32,000 nt of DNA from Burkholderiales bacterium (lineage in GTDB: Bacteria; Pseudomonadota; Gammaproteobacteria; Burkholderiales; JAEUOS01), in NCBI GenBank assembly GCA_031362865.1, contig JANLTH010000107.1:33033-65032 (forward strand), read 5' to 3'. Of this stretch, positions 8,461-30,031 are shown one piece after another; position 1 is the first letter of the stretch, and every line of letters begins with the position of its first letter. The translations under genes and the position numbers were made by a program. Below the pieces are notes generated by a model. It ran no database searches. It worked only from the letters and a program-made list of their open reading frames with translations, and was not told where the DNA came from.

Positions 8461-8474
8461 TCAGGGATTCTATT

Positions 8475-10197: not shown

Positions 10198-11327
10198 CCG
10201 CCTCAGCTTCTGACCCGGCTTCTGACTCAGCTACCGCTGCCGCAACTGCACCTGCTGCGCTAGCGCAGCAGGTGGTGGCCCGCGCCCCTTCGGGGGCGGC
10301 ACGGCTTGGACTGCAGGGTTGTATCATCATTGTGCGGGCCCTGCTGCTCGATTTGCACTGGGCCAGCACACAACGCGATATCCGTAATCTGCAACGGCAG
10401 TTGGCCGAGCGCCTGCGCAGTGGTGATGCGATCAATAGCGAGGCACGCATGTTGGCTCGCGAAGCGCAGGAGCGGGTGCGCGAGGCCACCACCAAGCTGG
10501 CCCTGCTCGAGGCCAAGCTGACCGAGTCGCAAAGCCAGCAAGCGGCGCTCGAACAGCTCTATCAGTCGCTGGCGCGCAACCGTGACGAGTGGGCGCTCTC
10601 TGAAATCGAACAGGTGCTTACCGTCGCTTCGCAGCAGCTGCAACTTGCCGGCAACGTACCGGGCGCGGTGATCGCGCTGCAAAACGCCGATTCCAGGCTC
10701 GCACGCGGCGACCGCGCCCAGTTCATCGCGGTGCGCAAGGCATTGCAAATGGACTTGGAGCGCCTGAAAGCCTTGCCCTACGTCGATGTGCCGGGGATGG
10801 CATTGAAACTGGACGCAATGATTCTCGCGGTTGACAGCTTGCCCTTGATCTTTGACGAACGCTTAGGCGCAGGCGAAGCGCTGGGCACGCCCACCGGCGA
10901 GAAGGGCGGCGCTGACGAAAAAACCTGGCTGGGCAAACTGTTTGGCGAAACCTGGAGCGAGATGAAGCAACTCATTCGGGTGCGCGACATGTCCGGCTCT
11001 GAGCCGGTGGTTTTGCCGCCCACGCAAACCTTCTTCCTGCGGGAAAATCTCAAGCTGCGTTTGCTCAACGCCCGCATCGCGCTGATGCAGCGCAACGAAA
11101 CGGCGTTTCGTGCCGATCTGCTGGCCGCGCAAAACTGGCTGGGCAAGCATTACGACCTGCGCGCCAAATCCACGGTGAATGCGGTGGCGGTACTCAAAGG
11201 GCTTTCGGCCAGCGCACTCGCCATTGAGTTACCGACCTTGGCGGACAGCCTGAACGCGGTGCGCAATTTTCGCGCCGCCCGCGAAGTGGCTCCGGGCGCC
11301 GGGTCCGCCACTGCGCCGCGCCGCTAG
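10194..11327 (+). CDS. hemX: HemX-family protein (often annotated uroporphyrinogen-III C-methyltransferase)
   Basis: ATGA overlap with the hemD stop. It has an N-terminal membrane segment followed by a long coiled-coil region, as in HemX, and sits in the conserved hemCDXY position. Confidence 0.7.
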   Translation: MTASASDPASDSATAAATAPAALAQQVVARAPSGAARLGLQGCIIIVRALLLDLHWASTQRDIRNLQRQLAERLRSGDAINSEARMLAREAQERVREATTKLALLEAKLTESQSQQAALEQLYQSLARNRDEWALSEIEQVLTVASQQLQLAGNVPGAVIALQNADSRLARGDRAQFIAVRKALQMDLERLKALPYVDVPGMALKLDAMILAVDSLPLIFDERLGAGEALGTPTGEKGGADEKTWLGKLFGETWSEMKQLIRVRDMSGSEPVVLPPTQTFFLRENLKLRLLNARIALMQRNETAFRADLLAAQNWLGKHYDLRAKSTVNAVAVLKGLSASALAIELPTLADSLNAVRNFRAAREVAPGAGSATAPRR

Positions 11328-17198: not shown

Positions 17199-17828
17199 TT
17201 ACGCCTTCACGGTCGGGTCTTCACGGCGGCGCAATCCAAACACCGCCGCGATCGCCGTTTCCAAGCCGCTCCACACCTTCAAGCGGTCCAGCACCGGATT
17301 CACCAATCCGGTCACTGCGCAGTAGTGGGTATTTTTGCGACCCATGTGGTGCTTGGCATGATGGCGCGGGCTTTGCAGCAGCTTGGTCTTTTGCAACCAG
17401 GTCACCACACGCCCATTTTCACTTGGATTCTGATGCGCCCACTTGTGAATTTGGTTGGCATTGACCGCGACAATCACGAACAGCCATACCTGCCAAGTGA
17501 GCATATCGAGGCCCCATGCGGCGGCCAAAATCACTAGGCCGATCAAGAACAAATCCCACGAACTCTCCCACCAACTGCGCGCAACAAAAGCGCGTGGTTT
17601 GACGTGATGTTCAAGATTGGCCTCACCGATCAGCTTGCCGATGATGGGCGTGTCTTTGCGCGCATAAGCATCTTCTGCCCAATGGATCGCGCCAGACATC
17701 AGGTCGGCAATCACCACCGTTGCAGCCACTTGCATCATGGGTATCATCAAGTTCATCGCCCGCCGGAAATCGTGCTCTGGGAGCGCAGTGCAATGCGCCC
17801 GACACGAGTTTTCCTCTCCCTTTTTCAT
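17199..17828 (-). CDS. CarF/TMEM189-like membrane lipid desaturase family protein (PF10520-like)
   Basis: Small polytopic membrane protein with histidine clusters: IHWAEDAY, EHHVKP, QIHKWAH, RHHAKHH. An alternative start at ATG 17756 (MNLMIP...) is possible. Confidence 0.6.
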   Translation of the reverse strand: MKKGEENSCRAHCTALPEHDFRRAMNLMIPMMQVAATVVIADLMSGAIHWAEDAYARKDTPIIGKLIGEANLEHHVKPRAFVARSWWESSWDLFLIGLVILAAAWGLDMLTWQVWLFVIVAVNANQIHKWAHQNPSENGRVVTWLQKTKLLQSPRHHAKHHMGRKNTHYCAVTGLVNPVLDRLKVWSGLETAIAAVFGLRRREDPTVKA

Positions 17829-17982
17829 GCACGCAGGAAATACTGCGCATGGAGAAAAGTCTGATCTGGCGGTACGTTTTGTGCAAGACTCTGTCGATAG
17901 GTATCGCTAAAAGCTACCGTCGGCGTATTTTCTAGATCAAGCGCCGGTCAGCATCTTGGCAGAAACCGTATCAAGGTTAATC

Positions 17983-18017
17983 AAAAATTGGGCCGAATGG
18001 GAATTTTGGCGGGCCAA
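17983..18017 (-). terminator. Probable intrinsic terminator of tRNA-Thr
   Basis: On the minus strand, directly 3' of the tRNA: TTGGCCCG-N14-CGGCCCAA (8-bp stem, one central mismatch) followed by TTTTT. Confidence 0.45.
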
Positions 18018-18021
18018 GAAT

Positions 18022-18097
18022 TGGTGCCCGTGGACGGAATCGAACCGCCGACCTCTCGCTTACGAAGCGACTGCTCTACCAACTGAGCTACACGGGC
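18022..18097 (-). tRNA. tRNA-Thr (anticodon CGT)
   Basis: The reverse complement folds as a cloverleaf. Acceptor stem is GCCCGTG/CACGGGC, D-arm AGCTCAGTTGGTAGAGC, anticodon loop TTCGTAA, T-arm GGCGGTTCGATTCCGTC, and the encoded 3' end is ACCA. Confidence 0.93.
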
Positions 18098-18210
18098 CGT
18101 GTTGACATGCTGCGCACGCATTTGCTTGCGGACTTGTTCCTTAAGCGTGCAAGCGTGCGGCAAGCCCGTTATTATAGACAATCCAGCCGTAATTTTCTAA
18201 TAGGTGCACC

Positions 18211-19023
18211 ATGATGTTTCGCTCTTGGCAGATTTGCGCCACTCGTTTTTTAATGGCATTCAGCGCAATTATGTTGGGCAGCTTGGCGCTGGCACAAGAC
18301 TTCGAGCGCGAAGCGCGCTGGCGTGCTGAAATTGAGCCGACCGTCGTCGTGGGCGACCCAGTGCTGCTCAAGCATTCCGTGCGAATGGCCGCGCCCGATT
18401 TTTTTGCGATTTACACCGAGGCCAAGGGGCCACCAAAGGCCGGGTTGGTGCTGCTGCACGGGGCAGGCGTACACCCGGATTTCGGCATGATTGGCGCGCT
18501 GCGGATCTCGCTCGCCGAGGTCGGCTACGCCACGCTTTCGGTACAAATGCCGGTGCAAGGCAAAGATGCCAAAGCGGAAGACTATCACCCCAAAGTATTC
18601 CCGAATGCGCTCGACCGGATCGCCCGCGCCGCGATCTACATGCAAGGCCGTGGGCATCGCAAACTGGTGTTGGTCAGCCACAGCATGGGCGCGTGGATGG
18701 CCAATGAATATCTGGATGCCAACCCGACCAATCTCTACGGCGCATGGATTTGCATCGGCATTACCGGTGGCTTCTCCAGCGATCTGGTAGGCAGCCTGCT
18801 CAAAGGCCGCGCGCTACCGGTTTTCGATGTTTACGGGCAGCGCGATTTTGAGGTGACCATGAGCGCCGCCGGGCGACGCTTTCGCGCCATCAAAGACACC
18901 GGCGGCTCGCGTCAAATTCAGGTGCCGGGGGCCGATCACTACTTCGCTGGCAAGGAGCGTGAACTATCAACGGTGCTTGCCACGTGGCTAGGCGAGATTG
19001 CACCCAGTCTGCGGGGGCAGTAA
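18211..19023 (+). CDS. Secreted alpha/beta-fold hydrolase
   Basis: Signal peptide (MMFRSWQICATRFLMAFSAIMLGSLALAQD), an HG oxyanion-type motif (LLHGAG) and a nucleophile elbow (VSHSMGA). Confidence 0.7.
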   Translation: MMFRSWQICATRFLMAFSAIMLGSLALAQDFEREARWRAEIEPTVVVGDPVLLKHSVRMAAPDFFAIYTEAKGPPKAGLVLLHGAGVHPDFGMIGALRISLAEVGYATLSVQMPVQGKDAKAEDYHPKVFPNALDRIARAAIYMQGRGHRKLVLVSHSMGAWMANEYLDANPTNLYGAWICIGITGGFSSDLVGSLLKGRALPVFDVYGQRDFEVTMSAAGRRFRAIKDTGGSRQIQVPGADHYFAGKERELSTVLATWLGEIAPSLRGQ

Positions 19024-19049
19024 TGGGCGATGATCGCGGCATCAGGCTG

Positions 19050-19520
19050 CTATAATCTTGGGCTTCGCTTTCGCAGCGATAGACGACCGAACACCGGAGA
19101 GGTGGCAGAGTGGTCGAATGTACCTGACTCGAAATCAGGCGATGCGGTAACGTATCCGAGGGTTCGAATCCCTCCCTCTCCGCCAGTAGCCTTACGCTGG
19201 GAAGCGTAGCCCTCACTGGGCATCATCATCAAAAAGCTGGCCGCTAGTGCCAGTAGCACCGTCGCCGCCAACTGGCCTGCGTGGGCGGCGCGCTCTTTTG
19301 GGCTTTCGGTCTCGATCTTCCAAATCCATTCAAGCGTTTCGGCTGGTCCCATGTTGGCGATTCTGGCCAGCTTGATGACCTCTACCGGGTTAAGGGCTTT
19401 GATGCCCTTTTTCATTTCACTTATCCGCGCGGGCATGCAGCCAAGCGACTTAGCACATTGATAGTCAGTCGTCAATCCGTGATTTCGCATCTTGAGGATT
19501 AGTTCGTAGCTGCTATTCAT
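19050..19520 (-). CDS. Phage HTH (Cro/CI-type) regulator, putative repressor; the ORF tail runs through attL and the tRNA-Ser gene
   Basis: The N-terminal ~65 aa look like a helix-turn-helix (TDYQCAKSLGCMPARISEMKKGIKALNPVEVIKLARIA), followed by a hydrophobic segment (LAATVLLALAASFLMMM). AAGGA Shine-Dalgarno lies 8 nt before ATG 19520. Residues after ~111 are encoded by the att core and host DNA, so the true functional end is uncertain. Confidence 0.6.
   Translation of the reverse strand: MNSSYELILKMRNHGLTTDYQCAKSLGCMPARISEMKKGIKALNPVEVIKLARIANMGPAETLEWIWKIETESPKERAAHAGQLAATVLLALAASFLMMMPSEGYASQRKATGGEGGIRTLGYVTASPDFESGTFDHSATSPVFGRLSLRKRSPRL
19096..19185 (+). tRNA. tRNA-Ser (anticodon CGA, reads UCG), long variable arm
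   Basis: Acceptor stem GGAGAGG/CCTCTCC, anticodon stem-loop CCTGA-CTCGAAA-TCAGG, long variable arm, T-arm GAGGGTTCGAATCCCTC, 3' GCCA. A perfect TATAAT lies at 19051-19056, about 40 nt upstream. Confidence 0.95.
19162..19185 (+). repeat. attL core: 24-bp direct repeat (3' end of tRNA-Ser)
   Basis: GTTCGAATCCCTCCCTCTCCGCCA is identical to 27481-27504. Confidence 0.9.
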
Positions 19521-19588
19521 TTGAGAATTCCTTTTCGGTATCTGTATTATTCGTGCTTATCGTTTAGTAAGTATTCGATTGAGCCGCG
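19521..19588. promoter_or_regulatory. AT-rich divergent promoter/operator region of the prophage (regulator leftward, replication operon rightward)
   Basis: This 68-nt gap is the most AT-rich stretch of the window. A candidate rightward promoter is TTGAGA (19521-19526) - 18 nt - TATTAT (19545-19550). T(T)AT(T)CG recurs three times (about 19548, 19557 and 19572). Confidence 0.4.
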
Positions 19589-19852
19589 ATGCCGCACTAT
19601 ACCTCCAAACCCTCGCCAACGTCACGCCCGGTCTACGCGATCTGGGTTCGGTACGCTGACGGCAAGGAAACGCTCTACCGGGGCGCGCTAGGCCAGACCT
19701 GGAGCGAGCAATGCCCCGAGTCCATCAAGCTGATGACGGCCCTAGCCAAGGCCGCCAATGTGCATTCAGTGCAGTGGCACCTCCTCGACCCTCGCGATGC
19801 CATGAGCGCCAAGCTACCGCCGAATTCCATCATTCAAGGAGTAACCGCCTGA
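19589..19852 (+). CDS. Phage hypothetical protein (87 aa), first gene of the rightward operon
   Basis: ORF whose TGA overlaps the ATG of the Rep gene (TGATG at 19850-19854). No recognisable motif. Confidence 0.5.
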   Translation: MPHYTSKPSPTSRPVYAIWVRYADGKETLYRGALGQTWSEQCPESIKLMTALAKAANVHSVQWHLLDPRDAMSAKLPPNSIIQGVTA

Positions 19853-21003
19853 TGAACGCACACCAGCAAACCAATGCGCGCCGGTTTATCGAACAACAAG
19901 GCAACGGCGAAGGCTTGCGCGCGCAGCGCGCAGCCGTAGCGGTTGCCGAAGCCGCTGCCGAAGGCGCGCAGCGTCCCCCTGCTCTAACAGGGGGGGAAAG
20001 TACCCCAAATCAAGCACTTAGCGAAAGCTGGAAAGCTCAAAACGTCATCGTTGACTGGTGCCAAGGCACGTTCAAGCGAATCCGGCCGGGAACCAACCCG
20101 ATAGCCATGATTCACCTCTGGTTTTGTCATTTCCTCATGTGCGATGTTCACGGCGAAGAACGGGGGAACGGCATGTGGGGCTACGAATCCCTCACCCACT
20201 TCTACGCCCACGTAGACGGAACCAGGATACTCGTCGGCCTAGCCATGACCGGCGGCGCAAAGACCAACGGAACCCATCTCTTTCAACTAAACGGGCACGG
20301 TTGCGCACTTGTCAAAGACTGGAACGAAGTTCAAAGAGTGCTTGAAGAGCACGATGCCAGCCTAACCCGCGTCGATCTAGCCATCGACACACTCGAAGGC
20401 GCATTTCGGGTAGAAGAAGCCGCAGATTGGTACGTAGACGGCGGGTTTACCCAAGGCGGGCGAAGGCCCAAGTACAAACAAGAAGGTGATTGGTTCCTCA
20501 ACCAAGGCAGCGGTAAAACCTTCTACGTCGGCCTACGCGAACACGGCAAACAAGCCCGCGTCTACGAGAAAGGCAAACAACTCAAAGACCGCTGGTCAAT
20601 GTGGAACCGCTTCGAAGTCGAAATCCACAACACCAACCGCGATATTCCCGCCGAAATCCTCACCAAGCGAACCGAGTATTTCGCAGGCATGTACCCCATT
20701 TGCGCCACACTGGTAGACACCGAACATGCTGAACGGATAGCCACCTTAAAAAAAGAAGGGGAGATCAGCCTTGCGCACCTTATGCACTGGAACAAAGTCG
20801 CATACGGACGTTTGATCTTCCAGCTAACCAGCGCTGGTCACACACCTGAAAGCATCATCCAAGACACGCAACGCGAGGGCGTGCCTAGGAGATTGTCCAA
20901 AGCCTCGCTATTAAAAATCCGCCAAGGCGGCTCCCAGAGGAGTATCAAAGATGAACAACATGACCCAAACCAACCAGCGCATGACCGGCCTGGGATTCTT
21001 TGA
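19852..21003 (+). CDS. Rolling-circle replication initiation protein (Rep_trans/RstA-like, gII analogue)
   Basis: Motifs typical of the Rep_trans family: TRVDLAIDT, ARVYEKGKQL (candidate catalytic Tyr) and RFEVEIH. It occupies the first large gene position of the rightward operon. The ORF-track start at 19711 overlaps the previous ORF, so the coupled ATG 19852 is preferred. Confidence 0.75.
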   Translation: MNAHQQTNARRFIEQQGNGEGLRAQRAAVAVAEAAAEGAQRPPALTGGESTPNQALSESWKAQNVIVDWCQGTFKRIRPGTNPIAMIHLWFCHFLMCDVHGEERGNGMWGYESLTHFYAHVDGTRILVGLAMTGGAKTNGTHLFQLNGHGCALVKDWNEVQRVLEEHDASLTRVDLAIDTLEGAFRVEEAADWYVDGGFTQGGRRPKYKQEGDWFLNQGSGKTFYVGLREHGKQARVYEKGKQLKDRWSMWNRFEVEIHNTNRDIPAEILTKRTEYFAGMYPICATLVDTEHAERIATLKKEGEISLAHLMHWNKVAYGRLIFQLTSAGHTPESIIQDTQREGVPRRLSKASLLKIRQGGSQRSIKDEQHDPNQPAHDRPGIL

Positions 21004-21298
21004 AGGCGAAATTGACGGCAAAGACATCAAGTCCGGCTCGATTTTCGTTGAGTCAGCTCTTGATGAAACCAAGAGCAACGCCAAAGGAACGCGCAGTGTC
21101 GAGCACAAAGTGGATATGGACCTTATCAAAGCGCTCATGCACAACCCCATGCCCATGATGGTCGATCTTGAATTTGAACACCGCGTCACACGCGGCGCTA
21201 TGTCTTTCAGGTGCATCAACGTCCTTCCCAAAGGCGTACCGCAAACCACGACGGTAAAAAGCCCGTTAGCTGGCAAAGCCACCGCAGCAGGCTTCTAA
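20951..21298 (+). CDS. Phage protein in the gV position (putative ssDNA-binding protein), 115 aa
   Basis: Strong GAGGAG Shine-Dalgarno 8 nt upstream of ATG 20951. It overlaps the Rep 3' end by 53 nt. Size and position match inovirus gV; the function is positional inference only. Confidence 0.45.
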   Translation: MNNMTQTNQRMTGLGFFEGEIDGKDIKSGSIFVESALDETKSNAKGTRSVEHKVDMDLIKALMHNPMPMMVDLEFEHRVTRGAMSFRCINVLPKGVPQTTTVKSPLAGKATAAGF

Positions 21299-21316
21299 TC
21301 GTTCCGGCTACGACAC

Positions 21317-21796
21317 ATGCCAACCGTCTACGTATGCAGCAATGCTGCTGTACCTGCAAATCAGGTGCAAGGCAACGCTACGATGCGCACGGCTTGCCCA
21401 AACGGGCAATTCGTGAGCATCAGCTACGACGCTCTGGTAAACGCCGCCCCAGCGTACCAAACCACTCAATCGCAGCTAGCAACTGCGATTGCCACCAACA
21501 CCACGCAAGGCAATCAAATCACAGCCCTGCAAACCGTTAACAACCAGCAGGGCACGGCCATCACGCTGCTGCAATCATCCAATCAAAGCCAAGCCGCCAG
21601 CATCCAGCAACTGCAAACCCAAATCACGCAGCTACAGCAAAGCAACCCAATCGGTGGCGGAATCGTTCCACCGCTGAGCATTTCCGACGCTGGAACCGTT
21701 TTAAGCGCCATAGCGCTCATTTGGGCTGTCGCCTACGGTATCCGAATGATTATCGATTTCATCCGCAGCAGCGCAGCTATCGCACGCGAGAACTAA
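21317..21796 (+). CDS. Phage Q/T/N-rich coiled-coil protein with coat-protein-like C-terminal membrane anchor (159 aa)
   Basis: Heptad-like Q-rich region (ITALQTVNNQQGTAITLLQSSNQSQAASIQQLQTQITQLQQ) followed by DAGTVLSAIALIWAVAYGIRMIIDFIRSS. Lies directly upstream of the major coat gene. No clear Shine-Dalgarno. Confidence 0.5.
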   Translation: MPTVYVCSNAAVPANQVQGNATMRTACPNGQFVSISYDALVNAAPAYQTTQSQLATAIATNTTQGNQITALQTVNNQQGTAITLLQSSNQSQAASIQQLQTQITQLQQSNPIGGGIVPPLSISDAGTVLSAIALIWAVAYGIRMIIDFIRSSAAIAREN

Positions 21797-21858
21797 GAAC
21801 ACGGACAAGCCGCCAGTCCGTGTGGTTCACTACGGCGGCACAAACCTAGGAGCAAATC

Positions 21859-22086
21859 ATGAACAAAGTATTTCAAGCAGTCCGCAAAGGCGGCAAGTGG
21901 CTCGTAGTAGCCGCACCAGCCGCCGCACTGACCACCAACGCTGCTGCCCAAGCTGTTGACACGACTGCCGCTGTCGCTGCGATCACGTCGCAAAGCGGTG
22001 CGTTGACGGCTATCGGCACGGCAGTCGTTGCCATCTCCGTGGTCTACATGATTTTCAAGTGGATCAAGTCGATGATCAAAGGCTAA
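21859..22086 (+). CDS. Major coat protein (gVIII-like)
   Basis: 75 aa. Signal peptide ends AAAQA, and the mature ~44 aa have an acidic N-terminus (VDTT), a hydrophobic helix (ALTAIGTAVVAISVVYMIF) and a basic tail (KWIKSMIKG). TAGGAG Shine-Dalgarno upstream and a strong terminator downstream. Confidence 0.8.
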   Translation: MNKVFQAVRKGGKWLVVAAPAAALTTNAAAQAVDTTAAVAAITSQSGALTAIGTAVVAISVVYMIFKWIKSMIKG

Positions 22087-22108
22087 AAAACGCCGAAGTC
22101 AACGATTG

Positions 22109-22131
22109 AAAGCCGGGGCAACCCGGCTTTT
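22109..22131 (+). terminator. Rho-independent terminator after the major coat gene
   Basis: AAAGCCGGG-gcaa-CCCGGCTTT followed by T; 9-bp perfect stem with a tetraloop. Confidence 0.8.
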
Positions 22132-22150
22132 GTCCTCAAGGAGAAAAGAC

Positions 22151-22210
22151 ATGGAAGGCTGGTTTCTGCTTACAGCAGGCATTGGAGCACTTTGGATTAT
22201 TCTTCGATGA
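22151..22210 (+). CDS. 19-codon hydrophobic micro-ORF (MEGWFLLTAGIGALWIILR) coupled to the pIII-like gene
   Basis: AAGGAG (22138-22143) lies 7 nt before ATG 22151. Its TGA overlaps the ATG of the next gene (ATGA, 22207-22210). It is too short for the supplied ORF track. Confidence 0.5.
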   Translation: MEGWFLLTAGIGALWIILR

Positions 22211-23601
22211 TTAGGCTGTTATTGATCTTGCAAATCTTCGTATTGCTGACCTTGTCAGTCGGCGCGCCGAAGAACGCGGTAGCAGTGACTTACGGTTGTT
22301 CCGTAATAGGTGATCCTACTTCGTGTTCTTGTTCCGATCCCCACTATTCTTTAGCTCCGGGGACTCAGGTTTGCGTGCGGACATCCTGCCCGGCCGGTCG
22401 CCGCGTCCAGGGCGACAGCTGTATTGTGGTATGCCCTGATGGTTCCGATCTTCCAGCATCGGGCGTTTGTCTAGAAGCATGTCCACCTGCACAAACGCGA
22501 GTAAACGGCGTATGCCAATGTCAGGCCGGATTCACGTTCAACACCGTCGAGAATGCCTGCAAAAAAGATGAAACTTGCGCGTCGCGCGGCGACAAAGATC
22601 AAAGCATCACCTGGTACGGCCCGGTCACGGTTCCTCCGACGCTTCCAGGCCCTGGGCGCTTTTGCATCGATGGATGCCGCTATTCTTCTGGCGCGGGCAA
22701 CTGCGGTACATCCGAGTCAGGAAAAACGGCCTGCTGGGCGGGTAAGTTGTGGAACCAGCAGACCGCGTGCACGCCGGGTTCAGGCGATAGCAAAACTGAC
22801 CCACCGCCGAACGATCCAAGCTGCGGCGTTGGCATGTGCCCCGGCAATGTAAACGGTACTAACGTTTGCGTCCCGTGCAAAACGAGGACAACCGATGACG
22901 GCGGCAGTGGAGGCGGAACAGGCGCTGGAACAGGCAGCGGCAATGGCAATGGTGGAACGGTGGGGCCAACGACCACGGATAGTAACGGTGGCTCTGATGT
23001 CCCTGGCGGCAGCACGACTTCGACAAACACAAACACCACAACCGATAGCAGTACAGGGCAAACCACAACGACAACAACCAAGACCACGACGACGAACACC
23101 GATGGCGTGAAGACCACAAAAACGGATACAACAAACACCAGTAAAGATACACCAACATTCTGCAAGGAAAACCCCAACCACACGCTTTGCAAAACGACGA
23201 CAGTCACCGGTCAAGAGTGTTCGCAGACAAGCGTCTGCAACGGCGATGCCGTCCAATGCGCAATTCTGGCCAAAGAAAAAGACATGGCTTGCGCACTCGA
23301 AGCTAGCAAAGGCATGGCCGACGTAGCACTAACGATCGGCACGTCCAGCGACCCGCAAAAGGACACCCTTGCCAAAGGCGGCACTAGCAGAAAAGAGGTA
23401 GACCTGAAATCGTTCGCACCTGGACCAGCAACCGTAAGCGGAGCATGTCCTGCACCAAAAACGATCCCGCTCCCGTTCGGCGGATCGGTAACAGCCTCAT
23501 TCGAGCCATTGTGCAGCCTAGCCCCATATATCCGATTAATGCTGTTATTTTCAACAGCTATATGGTGTATCATTTTTATTAGCAGCAAACAAGGAAGCTA
23601 A
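22207..23601 (+). CDS. Minor coat / adsorption protein (pIII-like)
   Basis: Signal peptide MIRLLLILQIFVLLTLSVGAPKNAVA, Cys-rich N-terminal domains and a long Gly/Ser/Thr linker (GGSGGGTGAGTGSGNGNGG ... TTTTTTKTTTTN). A C-terminal hydrophobic anchor is present (LMLLFSTAIWCIIFI). The position after the coat gene fits pIII. The ORF-track TTG 22192 is less likely than ATG 22207. Confidence 0.75.
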   Translation: MIRLLLILQIFVLLTLSVGAPKNAVAVTYGCSVIGDPTSCSCSDPHYSLAPGTQVCVRTSCPAGRRVQGDSCIVVCPDGSDLPASGVCLEACPPAQTRVNGVCQCQAGFTFNTVENACKKDETCASRGDKDQSITWYGPVTVPPTLPGPGRFCIDGCRYSSGAGNCGTSESGKTACWAGKLWNQQTACTPGSGDSKTDPPPNDPSCGVGMCPGNVNGTNVCVPCKTRTTDDGGSGGGTGAGTGSGNGNGGTVGPTTTDSNGGSDVPGGSTTSTNTNTTTDSSTGQTTTTTTKTTTTNTDGVKTTKTDTTNTSKDTPTFCKENPNHTLCKTTTVTGQECSQTSVCNGDAVQCAILAKEKDMACALEASKGMADVALTIGTSSDPQKDTLAKGGTSRKEVDLKSFAPGPATVSGACPAPKTIPLPFGGSVTASFEPLCSLAPYIRLMLLFSTAIWCIIFISSKQGS

Positions 23602-23603
23602 CT

Positions 23604-23918
23604 ATGGCACTCCCCGCTGTCGGAATGGTCATTGCAGGCGCGCTGAGCTACGTAGCCACGCACTTAGCTTCAAAAGTTATTGTTCACCTAGGCTTAGGCG
23701 TGGTGACCTACGTTGGCATCGACATCCTGATTCAAAAGTTTCAAAATTTCGCGTTCGACCAGCTAAACGGCCTCCCTCAAGACCTGCTTCAGTTTACAAA
23801 GCTCCTAGGTTTTGACACCGCCATAGCCATGATCTTCAGCGCCATTACCGTTCGTTGGACGCTCGGCGGCCTTTTCTCGAGTTCGGTATCCCGTTGGTTC
23901 GTCCAAGGTCGTGAGTAA
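23604..23918 (+). CDS. Minor coat protein (pVI-like, DUF2523-type)
   Basis: 104-aa hydrophobic protein with three predicted membrane segments. It starts 3 nt after the pIII-like stop and lies upstream of the Zot/pI gene, as in other inoviruses. Confidence 0.65.
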   Translation: MALPAVGMVIAGALSYVATHLASKVIVHLGLGVVTYVGIDILIQKFQNFAFDQLNGLPQDLLQFTKLLGFDTAIAMIFSAITVRWTLGGLFSSSVSRWFVQGRE

Positions 23919-24163
23919 GGTACAGGCGCCAATTGCGGGTCTGGGGGATCATCCCCCAGCCGGCCTCCAGTCCGGGAACTGGAGGGGTTTGGGCACCGCC
24001 CAATCGGGGGTTTGGGGTAGAGACTACCCCAATGGGTTTGGGCAAAGTCCAAGGTCTTGCGTGAGGGATAGCAGCCCACTGGTGGAGACTACAGGCTCCA
24101 TGCTCGCACAAAAGCCCGGTTTCGCATGCGAAACACGCCCGTCTTTAACGCAGTAAAAGCCCA
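23919..24163 (+). other. Highly structured non-coding spacer (four hairpins, three GGGTTTGGG repeats) between the pVI-like and pI genes
   Basis: Hairpins at 23941-23959, 23964-23985 and 24012-24032, plus the palindrome GTTTCGCATGCGAAAC at 24119-24134. GGGTTTGGG occurs at 23985, 24008 and 24034. A flanking direct repeat GTCCAAGGTC lies at 23901-23910 and 24047-24056. Confidence 0.7.
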
Positions 24164-25228
24164 ATGATTCGCCTTATTACCGGGCTACCCGGAAACGGTA
24201 AAACCCTACGCGTAGTTTGGGAACTCTCGAAGATCGCCGAAAAAGGCGAACGCCCGATCTACGTCCACGGCATTCCGGATCTGGCCATCCCTGTCAATCA
24301 GCTAGAAGACCCAGAAAAATGGTATGAACACGAAGACCACGCGCTAATCGTCATCGACGAAGCGCAAAGTATCTTCAGGCCACGTGGTACCGGCAGCAAC
24401 GTACCGCCACATGTGGCCCGGCTAGAAAAACACCGTCACCAAGGCATCGACCTCTGGCTCATTACGCAGCATCCCATGCTGCTCGATACCAACGTCCGAC
24501 GACTAGTCGGCGAACACATTCACGTTCATCGACCTTTCGGATTTCAACGAGCAACCATTCTCAAATGGCAAGAAGTCAGCAACCCAAGTAGTAAATCGCA
24601 CATCGCGCAAGCGCAAAAAGAACAATGGTCATTCCCGCAAGATGCTTACAAGCTCTACAAAAGCGCCCAAGTCCACACGCATAAAGCGCAAATTCCGTGG
24701 AAGATGGTCATCCTCGCCATCGGCACGCTAGTTGCGGCAGTAGTCGCCATGGGCTACGCCTACTACCACTTCAGCAAGATGGCCAACGCAGGCAAGCCAT
24801 TGACCGAAGCCACAAAGGCCCAACCCAGTGCCCTCGGTGGCGGCCTCGCAGTCGTTGGAAATAGCGACAAAAAAAAGAGTCCTCAAGAAGATCTCAGAGA
24901 TTGGCTAGACGCCAGGAAGCCAAGAATCGAAGGATTGCCCGAGACTGCGCCGCAATACGACGACGTAATGAAACCGCAAGTCGCCCCGCAGCCCTCGGCT
25001 TGCATCAAAATGCGTGACGAATGCCGGTGCTACACCCACCAAGCCACATTGATCGACATGTCCAGAAATCTCTGCGAGCAAATCGTCAAGAAAGGTTATT
25101 TCGACGCCACGCTAGCTAGGGAAAATCGCAGCTCCACATCTGTGCAGGGGCAAAGCAACCGCGCGCCCACGCAACAAGTGCCAACCGTTACACTAGCGCT
25201 ACCTGATTTCAAGGAAACTAAACCATGA
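24164..25228 (+). CDS. Assembly ATPase pI (zonular occludens toxin, Zot family)
   Basis: N-terminal MIRLITGLPGNGKT (Walker A), ALIVIDEAQ (Walker B) and a central TM helix (MVILAIGTLVAAVVAMGYAYY) followed by a periplasmic tail. This is the classic pI/Zot architecture. Confidence 0.9.
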   Translation: MIRLITGLPGNGKTLRVVWELSKIAEKGERPIYVHGIPDLAIPVNQLEDPEKWYEHEDHALIVIDEAQSIFRPRGTGSNVPPHVARLEKHRHQGIDLWLITQHPMLLDTNVRRLVGEHIHVHRPFGFQRATILKWQEVSNPSSKSHIAQAQKEQWSFPQDAYKLYKSAQVHTHKAQIPWKMVILAIGTLVAAVVAMGYAYYHFSKMANAGKPLTEATKAQPSALGGGLAVVGNSDKKKSPQEDLRDWLDARKPRIEGLPETAPQYDDVMKPQVAPQPSACIKMRDECRCYTHQATLIDMSRNLCEQIVKKGYFDATLARENRSSTSVQGQSNRAPTQQVPTVTLALPDFKETKP

Positions 25229-26046
25229 AAATGGTCATCAGCATCATCCTCGCCTTCACCGTCGTCTTTGGTGCTTTGTTTCTCGCTGACCGCAGCCTAA
25301 AAGGCAATTTTGACGCATCCAAGTCGCGCATCCAAGAAAAAGTCCAAGGCACAATCAAATTCGGCTTCAGCAAGCCAACTGAGCCACCAGCTGCGGTAGC
25401 GCAGCCACGACCTGGTGGAACTCCACCAGGTCGTGGCGATCGCGTCGTCGAGCTGCGCCCGCAGTATGTCCCAGTAGCAGCGGATTCCTTGGTCGCGAAG
25501 ATGATCGACGAAGATCGAAAGACCCGCCCTATTGGTCAACTTCGCCTAACCCTGTTAGAACCCGTAAACGAGCCACCACTTCACGCAAATTCCCGCGCTG
25601 CACCCGAGAAGGTGGGCGACCTCTACAAATGCGCTGTAGGCGGTAAAACGACCTACCAGCAAATTCCTTGCGCCGAAGGCGAAGGAAACGCATTGAAAGT
25701 TACGGATTCGAAGATTGGCAGAGCCGTAACACCGGTCGAGCTACTCCGCGCCACCATGGAAGAAAAAGGCTGGACAAACGGACGTCGCTACGAAAATGGG
25801 CGGCTGGTAGCCGAAGTCAAAGATGGTGGCATCGTCGTTTCACCGCACCAGCTCGCCAATGCTCAAGGTGACCCGCTACAACAAGCAAAATTCCGTTGTC
25901 GTGTTATCGAGGAAGAACTGGAACGCATCAAAGCGCTACAGCGGCAACCATTGTCCGGCTACGAACATGATCGTATCCGGCGGATCAAGGAAGAGTTGGA
26001 TGCAGAGCATTTCAGCCGGAAGTGCAATATCATCAAGAACCAATAA
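25225..26046 (+). CDS. Phage membrane-anchored periplasmic protein with DUF4124-like motif (273 aa)
   Basis: ATGA overlap with pI. N-terminal TM (MVISIILAFTVVFGALFL), a Pro-rich linker, LYKCAVGGKTTYQQIPCAEG (DUF4124-like) and a charged coiled-coil C-terminus. Confidence 0.6.
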   Translation: MKMVISIILAFTVVFGALFLADRSLKGNFDASKSRIQEKVQGTIKFGFSKPTEPPAAVAQPRPGGTPPGRGDRVVELRPQYVPVAADSLVAKMIDEDRKTRPIGQLRLTLLEPVNEPPLHANSRAAPEKVGDLYKCAVGGKTTYQQIPCAEGEGNALKVTDSKIGRAVTPVELLRATMEEKGWTNGRRYENGRLVAEVKDGGIVVSPHQLANAQGDPLQQAKFRCRVIEEELERIKALQRQPLSGYEHDRIRRIKEELDAEHFSRKCNIIKNQ

Positions 26047-26047
26047 A

Positions 26048-26069
26048 AAACCCGCCGGCTGGCGGGTTT
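26048..26069. terminator. Bidirectional intrinsic terminator
   Basis: AAACCCGCC-ggct-GGCGGGTTT with an A-run on one side and a T-run on the other, between convergent genes ending at 26046 (+) and 26089 (-). Confidence 0.8.
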
Positions 26070-26088
26070 CTCAGTGAGTTATCGAGCT

Positions 26089-26346
26089 CTAAACGTGCTG
26101 CGCCGCCTCAACGCGCATCACAGCGTCTGCCAGCGTATCCACCTTCGCAATCAACAGACTGCGCATCCGCGCATCCATCGCCATATCGCGGCGAATTGCA
26201 GCCAAGTCGGCGCGGATTGAAGCATTGTCTTCACGCAAGCTAGAAATTTGCTCATGCACCGCGTTCACGCTTTGGCGTTGACTGGCTTGCTCCGCCTGAA
26301 TCTGTTTCAGAATCTGCAACACAAGGTTTTCGGTTTCGGCAGTCAT
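26089..26346 (-). CDS. Phage coiled-coil protein (85 aa), unknown function
   Basis: AAGGAG lies 9 nt upstream of ATG 26346, which is preferred over the ORF-track start 26370. The protein is a heptad-rich helix (LVLQILKQIQAEQASQRQSVNAVHEQISSLREDNASIRADLAAIRRDM). Confidence 0.6.
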   Translation of the reverse strand: MTAETENLVLQILKQIQAEQASQRQSVNAVHEQISSLREDNASIRADLAAIRRDMAMDARMRSLLIAKVDTLADAVMRVEAAQHV

Positions 26347-26370
26347 GTTGTTCGTCTCCTTCTGATGCAC

Positions 26371-26829
26371 CGAATTGTAGGCTTTTCGCTGGCCAGCCGC
26401 AGCGCTTGCTACATTTGCACGCGCTTACCAGCATTGAATCTCTACAGACCAGCAGCCTCAAAAAGCTCCCCAAGTTCCCCCGCGCCATATCGCACAGGTC
26501 GAAGACCTGCCCCGAAGGGGTGAGCCGGTAGGAGCCGGGTCGGTAGACCTTCGACGGTTGTATCGTCGAACTCCGAAGCCCGGCGAATGCATGGCGCGGG
26601 CTGAGTACCTTCATAAGCCACGAATCGCTTTTCGCTCAAGTCACTACGCATTTCCCACGGCCTGCCGAAGGACAGGCCGCACCAAGGACTGCAACTGGTG
26701 ATATCGTCGGGAGTGCCGAAGGTGTGCCGAGTGAAGATGCGGACAGGGACACGCTTTATCGTCCCTGCCTCATCTTCACGTAGGACACACCGTAGGACAC
26801 GACCAGAGATACCACCAGTTGCAGCCGGG
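26371..26829. other. Large phage intergenic region with clustered hairpins and iterated motifs (candidate origin / packaging signal)
   Basis: No credible ORF. GAA-triloop hairpins lie at 26495-26509, 26510-26520 and 26659-26678, and another hairpin at 26550-26570. An 18-bp imperfect hairpin spans 26731-26779. Tandem CGTAGGACAC x2 lies at 26779-26800, and TGCCGA recurs four times. Confidence 0.6.
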
Positions 26830-27405
26830 TTACTCGAACAGGTCGCCCTTTGCCTTCGCTCTTTTCAAAGCTCGCTTCACTGAAGCAATGTGAATTCCGT
26901 ATCGCCGGGCTAATTCTGATTTGTTGAGCGAACCAGAGACAAACAGGGTGACCAGCTCCAGCTCCTGCTCTTCCGTGATGGCTGGCAATCGACCGAACGC
27001 CACGCCACGCAATCGAGCTGCGCCCATTCCTGCAACCGTTCGCTCCACGATCATTGACCGCTCAAACTCTGCGAACGCACCGAGAATCTGGAACACCACA
27101 CGCCCCGCAGCCGATTTCGTATCCAGATGCTCGGTAAGCGACTCCAGACGTGCACCAGTTTCGTGAATGCGCTCCGTCACGCGCAGCAAGTCCGCCAGCG
27201 AGCGGGCTACACGATCGAGCTTGTAAACGACTACCGTGTCACCCGGTTTGATCTTGGCCAGCAAAGCAATCAGCTCTGGCCTTTTCAGCGACTTACCGCT
27301 TTTTTGCTCCTGAAAAAGAAAATCGACGCCGGATTTCTCCAAAGCGTCGATCTGCAAACCGGTGTTTTGTTCGATGGTGCTTACGCGAGCATAGCCGTAG
27401 CGCAT
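26830..27405 (-). CDS. Small serine recombinase (resolvase/invertase family), putative prophage integrase
   Basis: MRYGYARVSTIEQNTGLQIDAL carries the catalytic Ser context, and VYKLDRVARSLADL is also present. A C-terminal HTH is present (LNKSELARRYGIHIASVKRALKR). 191 aa from ATG 27405, whose 5' end lies 75 nt from the attR core. Confidence 0.9.
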   Translation of the reverse strand: MRYGYARVSTIEQNTGLQIDALEKSGVDFLFQEQKSGKSLKRPELIALLAKIKPGDTVVVYKLDRVARSLADLLRVTERIHETGARLESLTEHLDTKSAAGRVVFQILGAFAEFERSMIVERTVAGMGAARLRGVAFGRLPAITEEQELELVTLFVSGSLNKSELARRYGIHIASVKRALKRAKAKGDLFE

Positions 27406-27480
27406 GATGGTTTCCTGTAAAGGAGTTGAAGGGACTCCTTCAGTAACCGAAACCATGCAAAGCGGCGCGGATCACGAAGA

Positions 27481-27504
27481 GTTCGAATCCCTCCCTCTCC
27501 GCCA
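27481..27504 (+). repeat. attR core: 24-bp direct repeat
   Basis: GTTCGAATCCCTCCCTCTCCGCCA is identical to 19162-19185. Similarity breaks down immediately upstream of the repeat. Confidence 0.9.
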
Positions 27505-27545
27505 AATACCTTTGTACAGGCGCGGGACTCGCAAAACTCTTGCGT

Positions 27546-27555
27546 CCCCCCCCCC
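27546..27555 (+). repeat. Homopolymeric C10 tract
   Basis: Read directly (tgcgt cccccccccc ttgcc). It lies 41 nt downstream of attR in host DNA, just after an imperfect hairpin GGGAC(tc)GCAA-aactc-TTGCGTCCC. Confidence 0.85.
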
Positions 27556-27788
27556 TTGCCAACTGCCTGCGGCCCCCTGCGCGCCCTGACATCACCTCCG
27601 CGCGCGGCTTCCACCGCGACCGCTTCGTGTCGCCGGTTCCTTTTCAATTGCGCTTCGTCCTCCGGCCGCCAGCCAACTCGCCGATTCCGGGCGCTTCAAC
27701 TTCGACATGTTGCCGAAAAGGCATTGCGAGCTCGGATTGCAAGATAATCTGGGAGATCGCAGCTCACAACTTATCGAATTTCAATCTC

Positions 27789-28565
27789 ATGAGTGTCAAA
27801 CAACTCTTCGACCTTTCCAATCGGGTCGCCATCATTACCGGTGGGTCGCGCGGCTTGGGGCTGCAAATGGCGGAAGCCTTGGGTGAATTGGGTGCCAAGC
27901 TGGTCTTGAGCGCGCGCAAAGCCAACGAGCTTGAAGAGGCTCATGCCCAGCTGACCAAGCTTGGTTACGACGTGATGACCATCCCGGCCGACATTGGCAA
28001 GGTCGAGGCGATTCAACCTTTGGTCGATGCGGTGATGGCGCGCCATGGGCGCATTGATATTCTGGTCAACAACGCTGGTGCTACCTGGGGCGCGAATGCT
28101 GAGGATCATTCGCTCGACGCGTGGAATAAGCTGATCGCGGTCAACCTTACCGGGGCCTTTTTGCTCTCTCAAGCAGTGGGGCGCGCCTCGATGATTCCGA
28201 ATCGTTACGGGCGCATCATCAATATCGCCTCGGTCGCAGGGCTGGGCGCTTCGCCGCCGCAAATGGGTGGCACGCTGGCCTACAACACCACCAAAGGCGG
28301 CTTGGTCAATTTCACTCGCCAATTGGCTGCCGAGTGGGGCCGCTACAACATCACGGTGAATGCGATTTGCCCCGGCTTTTTCCCTTCGCGCATGACCCGC
28401 TCGACGCTCGCTGCGCATGAGAAGTTTTTTGTCGATCTCACGCCGATGGGCAAATTGGGTGGCAACGAAGATTTGAAGGGCGCAGTGGCGTTGTTCGCGT
28501 CGAACGCGGGCGGTCACATCACCGGTCAAACGCTGGCGGTCGATGGCGGGGCGATTGTCGTATGA
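27789..28565 (+). CDS. Short-chain dehydrogenase/reductase (gluconate 5-dehydrogenase-like SDR)
   Basis: TGGSRGLG cofactor motif, NNAG and catalytic YNTTK. ATG 27789 (MSVKQLFDL...) is preferred over the upstream-extended ORF-track start 27540. Confidence 0.88.
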   Translation: MSVKQLFDLSNRVAIITGGSRGLGLQMAEALGELGAKLVLSARKANELEEAHAQLTKLGYDVMTIPADIGKVEAIQPLVDAVMARHGRIDILVNNAGATWGANAEDHSLDAWNKLIAVNLTGAFLLSQAVGRASMIPNRYGRIINIASVAGLGASPPQMGGTLAYNTTKGGLVNFTRQLAAEWGRYNITVNAICPGFFPSRMTRSTLAAHEKFFVDLTPMGKLGGNEDLKGAVALFASNAGGHITGQTLAVDGGAIVV

Positions 28566-29041
28566 GCCAAACCATTGCACCCCAGGTCATCATGCCCAAC
28601 GGCCGGCCGATGGGTGCGCGCGCGATTGGCTCACTCAAAGATGTGCCGTTTCTCACGCACCTGGGGGTCAAGGTGATGGAGATGGAGGAGGGCCGTTCAC
28701 TGCTCGTGCTCGACCCCAAGCCTGAACATTACAACTCGTGGGCGTCAGTGCATGGCGGTGTCATCGCGACGCTGCTCGACGTGTGCATGGCGGTGGCGGG
28801 GCGCTCTTACGACCCGGCCAATTTGTCCGGGATTACCGTTGACATGAGCATTCAGTACATCCTGCCAGGCAAGGGGCCGCAATTGGCGCGCGGCAACGTA
28901 GTCGCGCGCTCCGCCACTATTTGGCGCTGCGAAGGTGAAGTGCGCAACGCCGATGGCACTCTGGTCGCCAAGTCGATCGGCTCGTTCAAATTTAAAGATT
29001 TTTCCGCCCGGAAAGACAAACAACCTGTTGGAGATTCGTAG
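28562..29041 (+). CDS. PaaI-family hotdog-fold thioesterase
   Basis: SVHGGVIATLLDVCMAVA motif, ~150-aa size, and an ATGA overlap with the preceding SDR gene. Confidence 0.8.
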   Translation: MSQTIAPQVIMPNGRPMGARAIGSLKDVPFLTHLGVKVMEMEEGRSLLVLDPKPEHYNSWASVHGGVIATLLDVCMAVAGRSYDPANLSGITVDMSIQYILPGKGPQLARGNVVARSATIWRCEGEVRNADGTLVAKSIGSFKFKDFSARKDKQPVGDS

Positions 29042-30031
29042 ATGAATAAGCAATTTGTTTTAGCCAAACGCCCGCAAGGCCAAGTTACGCCTGACTGTTT
29101 CCGCTTGCAGGAAAGTGCCATTCCCGCACCGGCTGATGGCCAAGTGCTGGTCAAGCACCATTACATGTCGCTCGACCCCTACATGCGCGGGCGCATGGAT
29201 GATTCGAAGTCGTATGCGGTTTCGCAGGCTATCGATGCGGTGATGGGTGCTGGCACGGTGGGCGAAGTGGTCGAATCCAAGCTGGACGGTTTCAAGCCTG
29301 GCGACCATGTTGTCGGCATGGGTGGCTGGCAGCAATACTCGCTCGCCAAAGGCGGCGAAATGCGCAAGATCGACACGCGCCAGGTGCCGATGTCTGCTTA
29401 TCTGGGGGTGGTTGGCATGCCCGGAGTTACCGCGTGGGTCGGCACGAATACGATTTGCAATCCGAAGCCGGGCGAAACCTTGGTTGTGAGCGCAGCTTCG
29501 GGCGCGGTGGGCAGTGCGGTAGGTCAGCTTGCCAAGGCGCAGGGCGTGCGTGCGGTTGGTATCGCCGGTGGCGCTGCCAAGTGTGCGTATGTGAAAGACG
29601 AATTGGGCTTTGATGACTGCATCGACTACAAAACCGTAGGCTGGCAAGACGCACTCAAAGCCGCTACGCCCAAAGGAGTTGACTGTGTGTTTGAAAACGT
29701 CGGCGGCGAGATTTTCGACTTCTTGCTCTCACGCATGAACGCCTTTGGGCGCATCGCGGTCTGCGGCCTGATTTCAGGCTACAACGGCGAACCGTATGGC
29801 ATGAAAAACATTCGCTCGCTCTTGGTTAACCGCCTTACCGTGCAAGGCTTCATTGTTTCTGAGCGCATGGAACTGTGGCCCAAGGCGCTGGGCGAGCTTG
29901 GCATGGGCGTAGCGACTGGCAAGCTCAAGTACCGCGAAACGGTGGCGCCGGGGCTGGAAGCCGCGCCGCAAGCCTTTATTGGCCTGCTTAAGGGTGAGAA
30001 CTTTGGCAAGCAGGTGGTGAAGTTGATTTAG
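29042..30031 (+). CDS. NADP-dependent oxidoreductase, MDR superfamily (alkenal/enone reductase, YncB/CurA-like)
   Basis: AASGAVGSAVGQLAK nucleotide-binding motif and family-typical length. It starts directly after the stop of the thioesterase gene. Confidence 0.85.
   Translation: MNKQFVLAKRPQGQVTPDCFRLQESAIPAPADGQVLVKHHYMSLDPYMRGRMDDSKSYAVSQAIDAVMGAGTVGEVVESKLDGFKPGDHVVGMGGWQQYSLAKGGEMRKIDTRQVPMSAYLGVVGMPGVTAWVGTNTICNPKPGETLVVSAASGAVGSAVGQLAKAQGVRAVGIAGGAAKCAYVKDELGFDDCIDYKTVGWQDALKAATPKGVDCVFENVGGEIFDFLLSRMNAFGRIAVCGLISGYNGEPYGMKNIRSLLVNRLTVQGFIVSERMELWPKALGELGMGVATGKLKYRETVAPGLEAAPQAFIGLLKGENFGKQVVKLI

Follow-up and report, generated by a model that had tools for sequence, protein, structure and literature searches.

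The Ralstonia filamentous phages (inoviruses) phiRSM1 and phiRSM3 integrate through an Int/attP system that was reportedly worked out by Askora et al. in 2009 and 2011. Their 13-nucleotide (nt) core, ACCCTCTCCGCCA, equals the 3' end of a tRNA-Ser(UCG) gene, and the protein of open reading frame (ORF) 14 mediates both integration and excision (PMC3816273, PMC4471427). The same Int/attP unit is known from R. pickettii 12J and B. pseudomallei 668 and has been predicted to be widespread, while many inoviruses integrate through XerCD (reviewed in PMC4471427, PMC3816273). Serine recombinases are among the inovirus integration genes that are exchanged across families (Roux et al. 2019, PMC6813254). 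Here, we describe a related locus in a 32,000-nt stretch of a Burkholderiales contig (JANLTH010000107.1, positions 33,033 to 65,032; hereafter the window, whose numbering we use throughout). Positions 19186-27504 very probably hold an integrated, apparently intact inovirus prophage, whose integration module is a three-part cassette of a helix-turn-helix (HTH) regulator, attP and a small serine recombinase (Int) that belongs to a common stock with the module of phiRSM.

A small serine recombinase of the phiRSM type

The int reading frame is open from 26830 to 27456 on the minus strand and spans 208 amino acids from the ATG at 27456. A start at 27405, giving 191 amino acids, is preceded by an AGGAAA Shine-Dalgarno sequence and yields an N-terminus that agrees with the MxxGYARVST motif of all 15 aligned homologues. 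The protein matches the Pfam Resolvase family (PF00239, E=4.3e-39); its residues 2-184 align with the Gin invertase (PDB 4m6f, E=2.8e-36) and its residues 3-185 with Tn3 resolvase. In the AlphaFold model (pLDDT 84), a four-stranded catalytic domain is followed by a long helix E (99-132) and a C-terminal three-helix bundle (145-186), an arrangement whose best fold matches in the PDB are the full-length gamma-delta and Tn3 resolvases and Gin. S9, the nucleophile of the YARVST motif, is invariant across the family alignments, as are R7, D64, R65 and R68. The intact reading frame, the Pfam match, the alignment to Gin and Tn3 and the fold model thus bear out a first-pass annotation of the window, made from its letters alone, which had recognized a 191-residue resolvase-type enzyme with a YARVST serine and a C-terminal HTH. 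It had also called this enzyme the only recombinase, and our Pfam and PHROG profile searches indeed detected no second recombinase and no transposase among the prophage genes.

The best matches of Int among phage-collection proteins are phiRSM-type records from Ralstonia. ORF14 of phiRSM1 and phiRSM3 is 58% identical to it over 183 residues (E=1e-74), both being small serine recombinases of about 190-196 amino acids, and the att core in the window ends in TCCCTCTCCGCCA, which matches the phiRSM core at 12 of 13 positions. This alignment of recombinase and core with ORF14 and its attP, proposed in the first-pass annotation as a check, agrees with its claim of a phiRSM-type enzyme acting at the 3' end of a UCG-decoding tRNA-Ser (anticodon CGA). 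The parallel extends to the layout. In both cases the system is inovirus-encoded, regulator, attP and int follow one another on the strand opposite the structural genes, the target is the 3' end of tRNA-Ser(CGA), and a hairpin over the int Shine-Dalgarno sequence lies between attP and int; in the phiRSM3 record, attP (8473-8485, tggcggagagggt) sits between ORF14 and the repressor gene ORF15.

The likeness ends with the cassette. Besides Int, only a 147-amino-acid stretch of Zot matches phiRSM3 (29% identity), the replication initiator belongs to a different family, and the gene content and synteny of Habenivirus (phiRSM1, phiRSM3) are not shared by the prophage. As judged by sequence comparison, the integration cassette is homologous to that of phiRSM and the phage backbone is unrelated. 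An exact-sequence look-up of Int returned no record, and Int is at most 70% identical to any other lineage found, the only closer sequences being two metagenome contigs at 98%. Between the window and the lineage of one of these (L090), int carries 35 nucleotide changes and 4 amino-acid changes (pN/pS 0.045) and is therefore under purifying selection.

Boundaries and gene content of the prophage

The prophage measures 8,319 bp, with its left end at tRNA-Ser(CGA) and int at its right end. It is flanked by the tRNA gene on one side and by a copy of that tRNA's 3' end on the other, and the G+C fraction is about 0.59-0.62 in the flanks versus 0.53-0.56 within. Inovirus genes (Rep_trans, Coat_B, pIII-like, DUF2523/pVI-like and Zot/pI) fill the interval between the att repeats. 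The features are as follows.

19096-19185, plus strand: intact tRNA-Ser, anticodon CGA, whose 3' end is the attL core (ARAGORN)
19159-19185, plus strand: attL copy of the att repeat, 27 nt with 1 mismatch, exact over 19162-19185 (repeat search)
19173-19174, plus strand: predicted crossover dinucleotide TC at tRNA positions 64-65, with its attR counterpart at 27492-27493 (from relatives)
19186-19520, minus strand: HTH transcriptional regulator in the position of phiRSM ORF15 (phrog_638, 1.9e-12; phrog_4441, 1e-8)
19521-19625, both strands: divergent promoter-like pair, 19521-19550 (plus) towards the replication and structural genes and 19625-19596 (minus) towards the regulator (consensus scan alone)
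19711-21003, plus strand: replication initiator of the Rep_trans type, unlike phiRSM ORF12 (Pfam PF02486, 7.7e-27; phrog_453, 1.4e-74)
21859-22086, plus strand: major coat protein (Pfam Phage_Coat_B, 2.5e-10)
22192-23601, plus strand: candidate pIII-like adsorption protein, 469 amino acids (phrog_4352, 3.8e-38; genome position)
23604-23918, plus strand: pVI-like minor coat protein, DUF2523 (Pfam, 2e-18; phrog_1242)
24164-25228, plus strand: Zot/pI assembly ATPase (Pfam Zot, 6.8e-20)
26830-27405, minus strand: int, 191-amino-acid small serine recombinase with nucleophile S9 and C-terminal HTH (Pfam, PDB, homologue alignment, fold model)
27409-27448, minus strand: interrupted hairpin in the int leader, including the hairpin at 27421-27439, with its 3' arm over the Shine-Dalgarno AGGAAA at 27411-27416 (-14.3 kcal/mol, z = -2.75)
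27449-27477, plus strand: phage-side arm of attR, weakly tRNA-like, replaced and 11 nt shorter in the 95%-identical phage of L090 and L091 (alignment)
27478-27504, plus strand: attR copy of the att repeat, the displaced tRNA 3' end (same junction in metagenome contigs L090 and L091)

Int among invertases, resolvases and integrases

Int has the fold, catalytic residues and domain order of the Gin and Hin invertases and of the gamma-delta and Tn3 resolvases, at about 33-40% identity, and NCBIfam and PHROGs label it invertase-like. In sequence, Int is slightly nearer to DNA invertases (Gin, E=3e-36) than to any protein labelled an integrase, and it might therefore be taken for a resolvase or invertase that serves the phage itself, for example by resolving multimers of the replicative form, with integration at the tRNA left to an enzyme acting in trans, be it XerCD, as used by many inoviruses, or a tyrosine integrase. 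We regard this as highly improbable. At the prophage ends we found no dif-like site (queried with R. solanacearum and E. coli dif at up to 3 mismatches; the host's own dif may differ), and these ends consist of the tRNA 3'-end repeat. Moreover, int adjoins att in the window as well as in dozens of relatives that differ in their tRNA-Ser target, and both integration and excision have been demonstrated for the phiRSM orthologue. The copies of the core, separated by 8.3 kb, stand in direct and not in inverted orientation. The Gin/Hin/Pin layout, in which inverted sites surround an invertible segment, is thus absent, the direct repeats bounding the whole prophage, and so is the layout of Tn3-family resolvases, as the element has neither a transposase nor terminal inverted repeats (repeat search).

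An integrase role for Int sets it apart from these enzymes in its substrates. Gin, Hin, gamma-delta and Tn3 act on two sites within one molecule and need a Fis-bound enhancer or accessory res subsites, whereas the window Int is proposed to join two molecules at the tRNA gene. The M114V change renders Gin Fis-independent, and the phiRSM-type Int family has an invariant phenylalanine at the position of M114; its bearing on Fis independence is suggestive only. With the large serine integrases (phiC31, Bxb1, TP901-1), Int shares the serine chemistry and integration by attP x attB recombination. By contrast, those enzymes have 450-600 amino acids with recombinase and zinc-ribbon domains, recombine attP and attB sites that are unlike each other and excise only with the help of a directionality factor, while Int has 191 amino acids, a simple HTH and near-identical att sites; its matches to the catalytic domains of TP901-1 and Bxb1 are distant and partial. 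Pf4 and Pf5 (tyrosine integrases, tRNA genes) and CTXphi and phiRSS (XerCD at dif) are likewise site-specific filamentous prophages, and Pf4 also uses a tRNA 3' end. Their recombinases differ from Int in superfamily and chemistry, and the window prophage contains no tyrosine recombinase or dif-like site.

The att sites and their polarity

The repeats at 19159-19185 and 27478-27504 are direct and agree over 27 nt except for one mismatch (G at 19161, A at 27480), which leaves 24 exact nt (19162-19185 and 27481-27504). This 24-nt sequence has 2 matches in the window and 0 in 100 shuffles, and comprises the T-loop, the 3' strand of the T-stem and the 3' strand of the acceptor stem with the CCA of tRNA-Ser(CGA). 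The core of phiRSM, by comparison, shares 13 nt with its target. From the int ATG it is 72 nt to the repeat and 75 nt to the exact run, the latter being the distance given in the first-pass annotation. The core that it had drawn at 27440-27504 was too generous: the real repeat lies within it, at 27478-27504, and the remainder, 27440-27477, is weakly tRNA-like, its gapped alignment to the tRNA beating all 2000 shuffles. The identical attR junction occurs in two other metagenomes (contigs L090 and L091).

In phiRSM and most relatives, the tRNA-sense core (...CTCCGCCA) runs parallel to int, with about 58 nt between the end of the core and the int ATG. The int strand of the window reads TGGCGGAGAGGG..., and the core is thus antiparallel to int. 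As a result of the phiRSM-type arrangement, lysogens such as L083, L084, L086, L094, L101 and L107 carry int immediately downstream of the intact tRNA; in the window, int lies at attR and points inward. L090 and L091, found in two independent ENA metagenomes, share the antiparallel polarity and the host junction with the window (Int 98% identical, phage 95% identical), and the same polarity is seen in L092/L093 (Int 70%) and L088/L089 (60%). A more distant group, L175-L179, is also antiparallel, and the polarity has therefore flipped more than once. This polarity is an architectural rather than a mechanistic difference from phiRSM.

Predicted position of the crossover

The lone mismatch (19161/27480) and the intact T-arm at attL place the crossover within 19162-19185. 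A finer position comes from comparing the length of identity among 11 complete prophages known at both ends, each lying between a tRNA-Ser and a copy of that tRNA's 3' end. In 8 independent prophages of the 11, identity with the tRNA 3' end is exact over 13 nt (14 in one case), across the isoacceptors CGA, GCU and UGA and five different 13-mers; in the other three, the window, L088 and L027, it spans 24-26 nt. Within the 13-nt group, the 13-mer of each phage tracks its own tRNA and the four bases to its left never agree with the tRNA. Because identity between phage and tRNA is demanded only for the part donated to the tRNA at attL, the crossover should lie at the left edge of the 13-mer. For the window, we infer a crossover on the left boundary of the final 13 tRNA nt or slightly within it, at the TC of 19173-19174 and 27492-27493. 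A serine recombinase requires a non-palindromic crossover dinucleotide, and the dinucleotide at tRNA positions 64-65 of the relatives is AC or TC, both non-palindromic. Every attP further contains a T-loop-like box, TTCGRA, 5-10 nt to the left of the 13-mer and an invariant CCGCCA at the right end of the 13-mer, which are candidate recognition elements.

Two other marks of the crossover were considered and rejected. The inverted repeats that flank phiRSM-type attP (GCCCTAGCG...CGCTAGGGC, covarying among relatives) have their centre in the pseudo-T-loop, and intact T-arms at attL in L101 and L107 contradict the same idea by placing the crossover in the 13-mer. A right-arm motif common to the window (TACGCTGGGAAGCGTA) and phiRSM (TACGCTAGGGCAACGTA) is shifted by 7 nt between them and absent from the syntenic relative L088. 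No equivalent of the phiRSM-type inverted repeat was found in the attP of the window or of its clade.

The repeats are a feature of phiRSM-type circular genomes in their own right: in L001/L002, L104, L106, L110 and L116, attP is bracketed by inverted repeats of 9-11 bp that enclose the pseudo T-arm and the 13-nt core, and the pairs covary between phages (GCCCTAGCG/CGCTAGGGC, GCCCTAAGCA/TGCTTAGGGC, GCCCTAGGTCA/TGACCTAGGGC).

The regulator and a proposed control of int

The regulator (19520 to 19186) and int (27405 to 26830) both lie on the minus strand, at opposite ends of the prophage, and joining 27504 to 19186 in the circular form brings regulator, attP and int into this order on one strand. 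The families phrog_638 and phrog_4441 are matched by the window regulator, phiRSM3 ORF15 and the att-side regulators of Variovorax L083, Cupriavidus L086 and metagenomic L088. A BLASTP comparison of the window regulator with phiRSM ORF15 was not significant (E=2.4), so that the two are related at the level of profiles only. They also end differently: ORF15 stops 38 nt before att, whereas the window regulator has no stop before att and reads through it. In the prophage its frame runs to 19050 (156 amino acids); in the reconstructed circular form it has 152 amino acids and ends at 27381, 25 nt inside int. The read-through tail is probably non-functional, because the intervening segment differs by 11 nt in L090.

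The C-terminal ~35 residues of the regulator accordingly differ between prophage and circular form, and a similar integration-linked change has been discussed for ORF13 of phiRSS0 (reviewed in PMC3816273). Behind the HTH domain, at residues ~83-100, the regulator has a hydrophobic stretch, LAATVLLALAASFLMMM, and the frame continues antisense through the tRNA gene (19083-19520, minus strand).

A consensus scan found no sigma-70-like promoter upstream of int and a divergent promoter-like pair at the regulator. Both results would fit a transcript shared by regulator and int in the circular form, with int losing the regulator promoter upon integration. A second element of control may lie in the int leader. 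Here, an interrupted helix extends over 27409-27448 (-14.3 kcal/mol, z = -2.75), built around the hairpin AGGAGT-N7-ACTCCT at 27421-27439, and the 3' arm of this helix overlaps the int Shine-Dalgarno sequence. The same position also folds in L088 and L092, with weak support from one compensatory pair among the four sequences compared.

The first-pass annotation had correctly noted the short hairpin and offered it as a possible part of attP, a role that would make it an accessory recombinase-binding site like subsites II and III of res. Small serine recombinases of the resolvase type are known to use accessory sites within about 120 bp, a block of the form GTTACTGAA..AGTCC..CAAC is kept across the clade, and phiRSM likewise has a hairpin between attP and int. 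We nonetheless find this assignment unlikely. The hairpin lies at least 39 bp from the att core and overlaps the Shine-Dalgarno sequence, and between the window and L088 or L092 it is the pairing of the stem that is kept rather than its sequence, which points to a structure in RNA or single-stranded DNA. Furthermore, the 29 nt between hairpin and core are replaced and 11 nt shorter in L090 and L091, whose Int is 98% identical, which argues against a crossover site proper that reaches the hairpin. A leader structure that governs int expression appears more likely than a part of the crossover site. Together, the lost promoter and the leader hairpin over the ribosome-binding site would keep int expression low in the prophage.

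Is the prophage active?

Several observations weigh against a working prophage with the crossover and the promoter arrangement proposed above. In Logan contigs from four sediment metagenomes, examined over 17500-29500, we found no usable attP or empty-attB junction, the tRNA repeat being a confounder: apparent joints of 19185/19186 to 27478/27486 are short contigs that end in the shared tRNA repeat, at a depth of ~1000 and from many organisms, and such joints speak on neither side of the question of excision. A search of JGI metagenomes for an empty attB or for further attR sites (CTCTCCGCCAAATACCTTTGT) found none. In run X1, the depth is ~8 over the prophage and ~8-9 over the flank, and there is no sign of an amplified replicative form or of excision. 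The crossover position is a prediction from comparison, around which no convincing dyad symmetry was seen, and the promoter argument is built on a crude consensus scan.

The equal depth of prophage and host, the lack of a circular junction among the reads and the regulator reading frame without a stop of its own before att would all fit a fixed, immobile remnant, in which the att repeats and int are relics and either the enzyme or its sites no longer work. Such a remnant seems improbable to us, although less so than an integration enzyme acting in trans. The core inovirus genes are all open, the pN/pS of int is 0.045, the catalytic residues are intact and the att copies are identical over 24 nt. 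Other samples, moreover, show the same site taken by a phage that is 95% identical but differs in its arm sequence, and this points to independent activity in the recent past. We thus retain the reading of an apparently intact prophage.

Relatives and host

A neighbour-joining tree groups the window Int with those of L088-L093 as a monophyletic sister group of the clade that contains phiRSM. L088/L089 (JGI 3300079104 and 3300078830) and L092/L093 form an undescribed sister lineage in which Int is 60-70% identical and the antiparallel att, a 25-nt core and the leader hairpin recur as in the window. L088 is syntenic with the window along the whole phage (Rep 49%, Zot 59%, pVI 52% identity). Its target is tRNA-Ser(GCU), whereas that of the window is the CGA isoacceptor, and the hosts differ.

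A protein search retrieved 3,785 relatives of Int at E<=1e-20. Among these, the named relatives with 55-62% identity belong to Cupriavidus, Ralstonia, Herbaspirillum, Variovorax and Georgfuchsia. In Variovorax sp. W1I1, H. rubrisubalbicans and C. metallidurans, Int has a tRNA-Ser and an inovirus module with Zot as neighbours, and an inovirus context was also found in genomes of Aquabacterium, Polaromonas and Comamonas, so that the unit occurs in six or more further genera of Burkholderiales. Relatives are also carried by about 40 IMG/VR contigs, 7-12 kb long, with Zot on nearly all contigs long enough to judge, and nearly all relatives of at least 45% identity adjoin Zot genes. A scan of genome contigs recovered mostly generic resolvases at 40-50% identity and missed the Cupriavidus and Ralstonia relatives as well as the source genome; only six loci from it were useful.

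The flanking Ppc is without close relatives; its best named matches, at 59-62% identity, are metagenome-assembled genomes of Burkholderiales together with Noviherbaspirillum, Herbaspirillum, Collimonas and Glaciimonas, and Ralstonia does not appear among the top 120. On the strength of these Burkholderiales and Oxalobacteraceae matches, the host is placed as a deep-branching uncultured member of the Burkholderiales, not a Ralstonia, as the first-pass annotation had suspected. Its further suggestion, that the locus would extend the system to a new host, does not amount to a novelty, the unit being known from R. pickettii and B. pseudomallei and occurring in the other genera named above. The window prophage is a genuine phiRSM-type module in a new, divergent phage lineage; the spread of such modules to new hosts was already known. 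The public runs that contain the window sequence are freshwater-sediment metagenomes.

Two of the relatives differ in their surroundings. L086 (Cupriavidus metallidurans CP026544.1; 10893-11348, 19198-19509 and 19727-20188) has a second, truncated resolvase fragment beside attR and pilin-like genes (N_methyl/Pilin) at both ends; these features hint at a copy that is tandem or remnant and at a potential cargo gene. L085 (Georgfuchsia toluolica, 10001-10822) encodes a 273-amino-acid relative with 55% identity, an N-terminal extension and a duplicated C-terminal HTH segment; it lies beside a Phage_GPA replication gene and a tyrosine integrase and is not part of an inovirus.

Other features of the window

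Right behind the int stop, at 26681-26832, inverted repeat I6 folds into a near-perfect hairpin of ~150 nt in single-stranded DNA (-47 kcal/mol, z = -7.7). It is nearly invariant between the window and L090/L091, whereas int differs at 6% of positions, and it is a candidate packaging signal or minus-strand origin. Within the morphogenesis module, a non-coding gap of 245 nt (23919-24163) separates the pVI-like gene from the Zot/pI gene and contains the direct repeats D3 and D8 together with a number of short hairpins rich in G+C (z = -3.3). The host flank has a run of ten C (27546-27555) at a distance of 42 nt from attR, and this run is 5 nt shorter in the related strain of run X4. A tRNA-Thr(CGT) gene (18022-18097, minus strand) lies 1 kb upstream of the tRNA-Ser target, and the 270-amino-acid ORF between the two tRNA genes has no NCBIfam match.

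A proposed route of integration and its implications

Our comparisons speak to the architecture of the locus; the chemistry in the following scheme is that generally established for serine recombinases. The joining of 27504 to 19186 in the replicative form, a double-stranded circle, would put attP, with its 24-nt copy of the 3' portion of the host tRNA-Ser(CGA), including CCA, between the regulator and int. Int dimers bound to attP and to the tRNA gene (attB) would assemble into a tetramer, in which Ser9 would cleave four strands at a 2-bp overlap, half of the complex would rotate by 180 degrees and the ends would be rejoined. This would leave the tRNA intact at attL, where the phage has contributed its last bases, and put the displaced 3' fragment beside int at attR. 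Given the near identity of attP and attB, Int should also excise the prophage, as reported for the Int of phiRSM. As the core is inverted relative to int, the lysogen would carry int at the end far from the tRNA gene, facing inward from the host DNA, and integration would separate int from the promoter of the regulator.

For the family as a whole we offer a reading that is speculative, and in our judgment doubtful. Each attP combines the TTCGRA box, a 4-nt spacer and the final 13 nt of the tRNA-Ser isoacceptor that it targets (CGA, GCU or UGA). This pattern may show how the family reads a tRNA gene; it would set the crossover at tRNA positions 64-65 and would mean that the enzyme was retargeted repeatedly among the isoacceptors. 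In the clade of the window, integration would then split a regulator-attP-int operon, and expression of int from the circular form only would constitute a topological on/off switch that replaces a recombination directionality factor.

The picture of inovirus integration is unchanged by this locus, as it already includes the phiRSM-type mechanism and its spread among beta-proteobacteria. Outside this phage group, true integrases are rare among small serine recombinases, and their compact size makes them attractive enzymes for genome engineering. In this respect, the most useful features of the locus are its flipped att polarity, its longer core and the retargeted att series among its relatives. 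Together, the window and these relatives form a natural series of attP and attB sites, covering three tRNA-Ser isoacceptors and two polarities, that is usable to map the crossover and the determinants of recognition.

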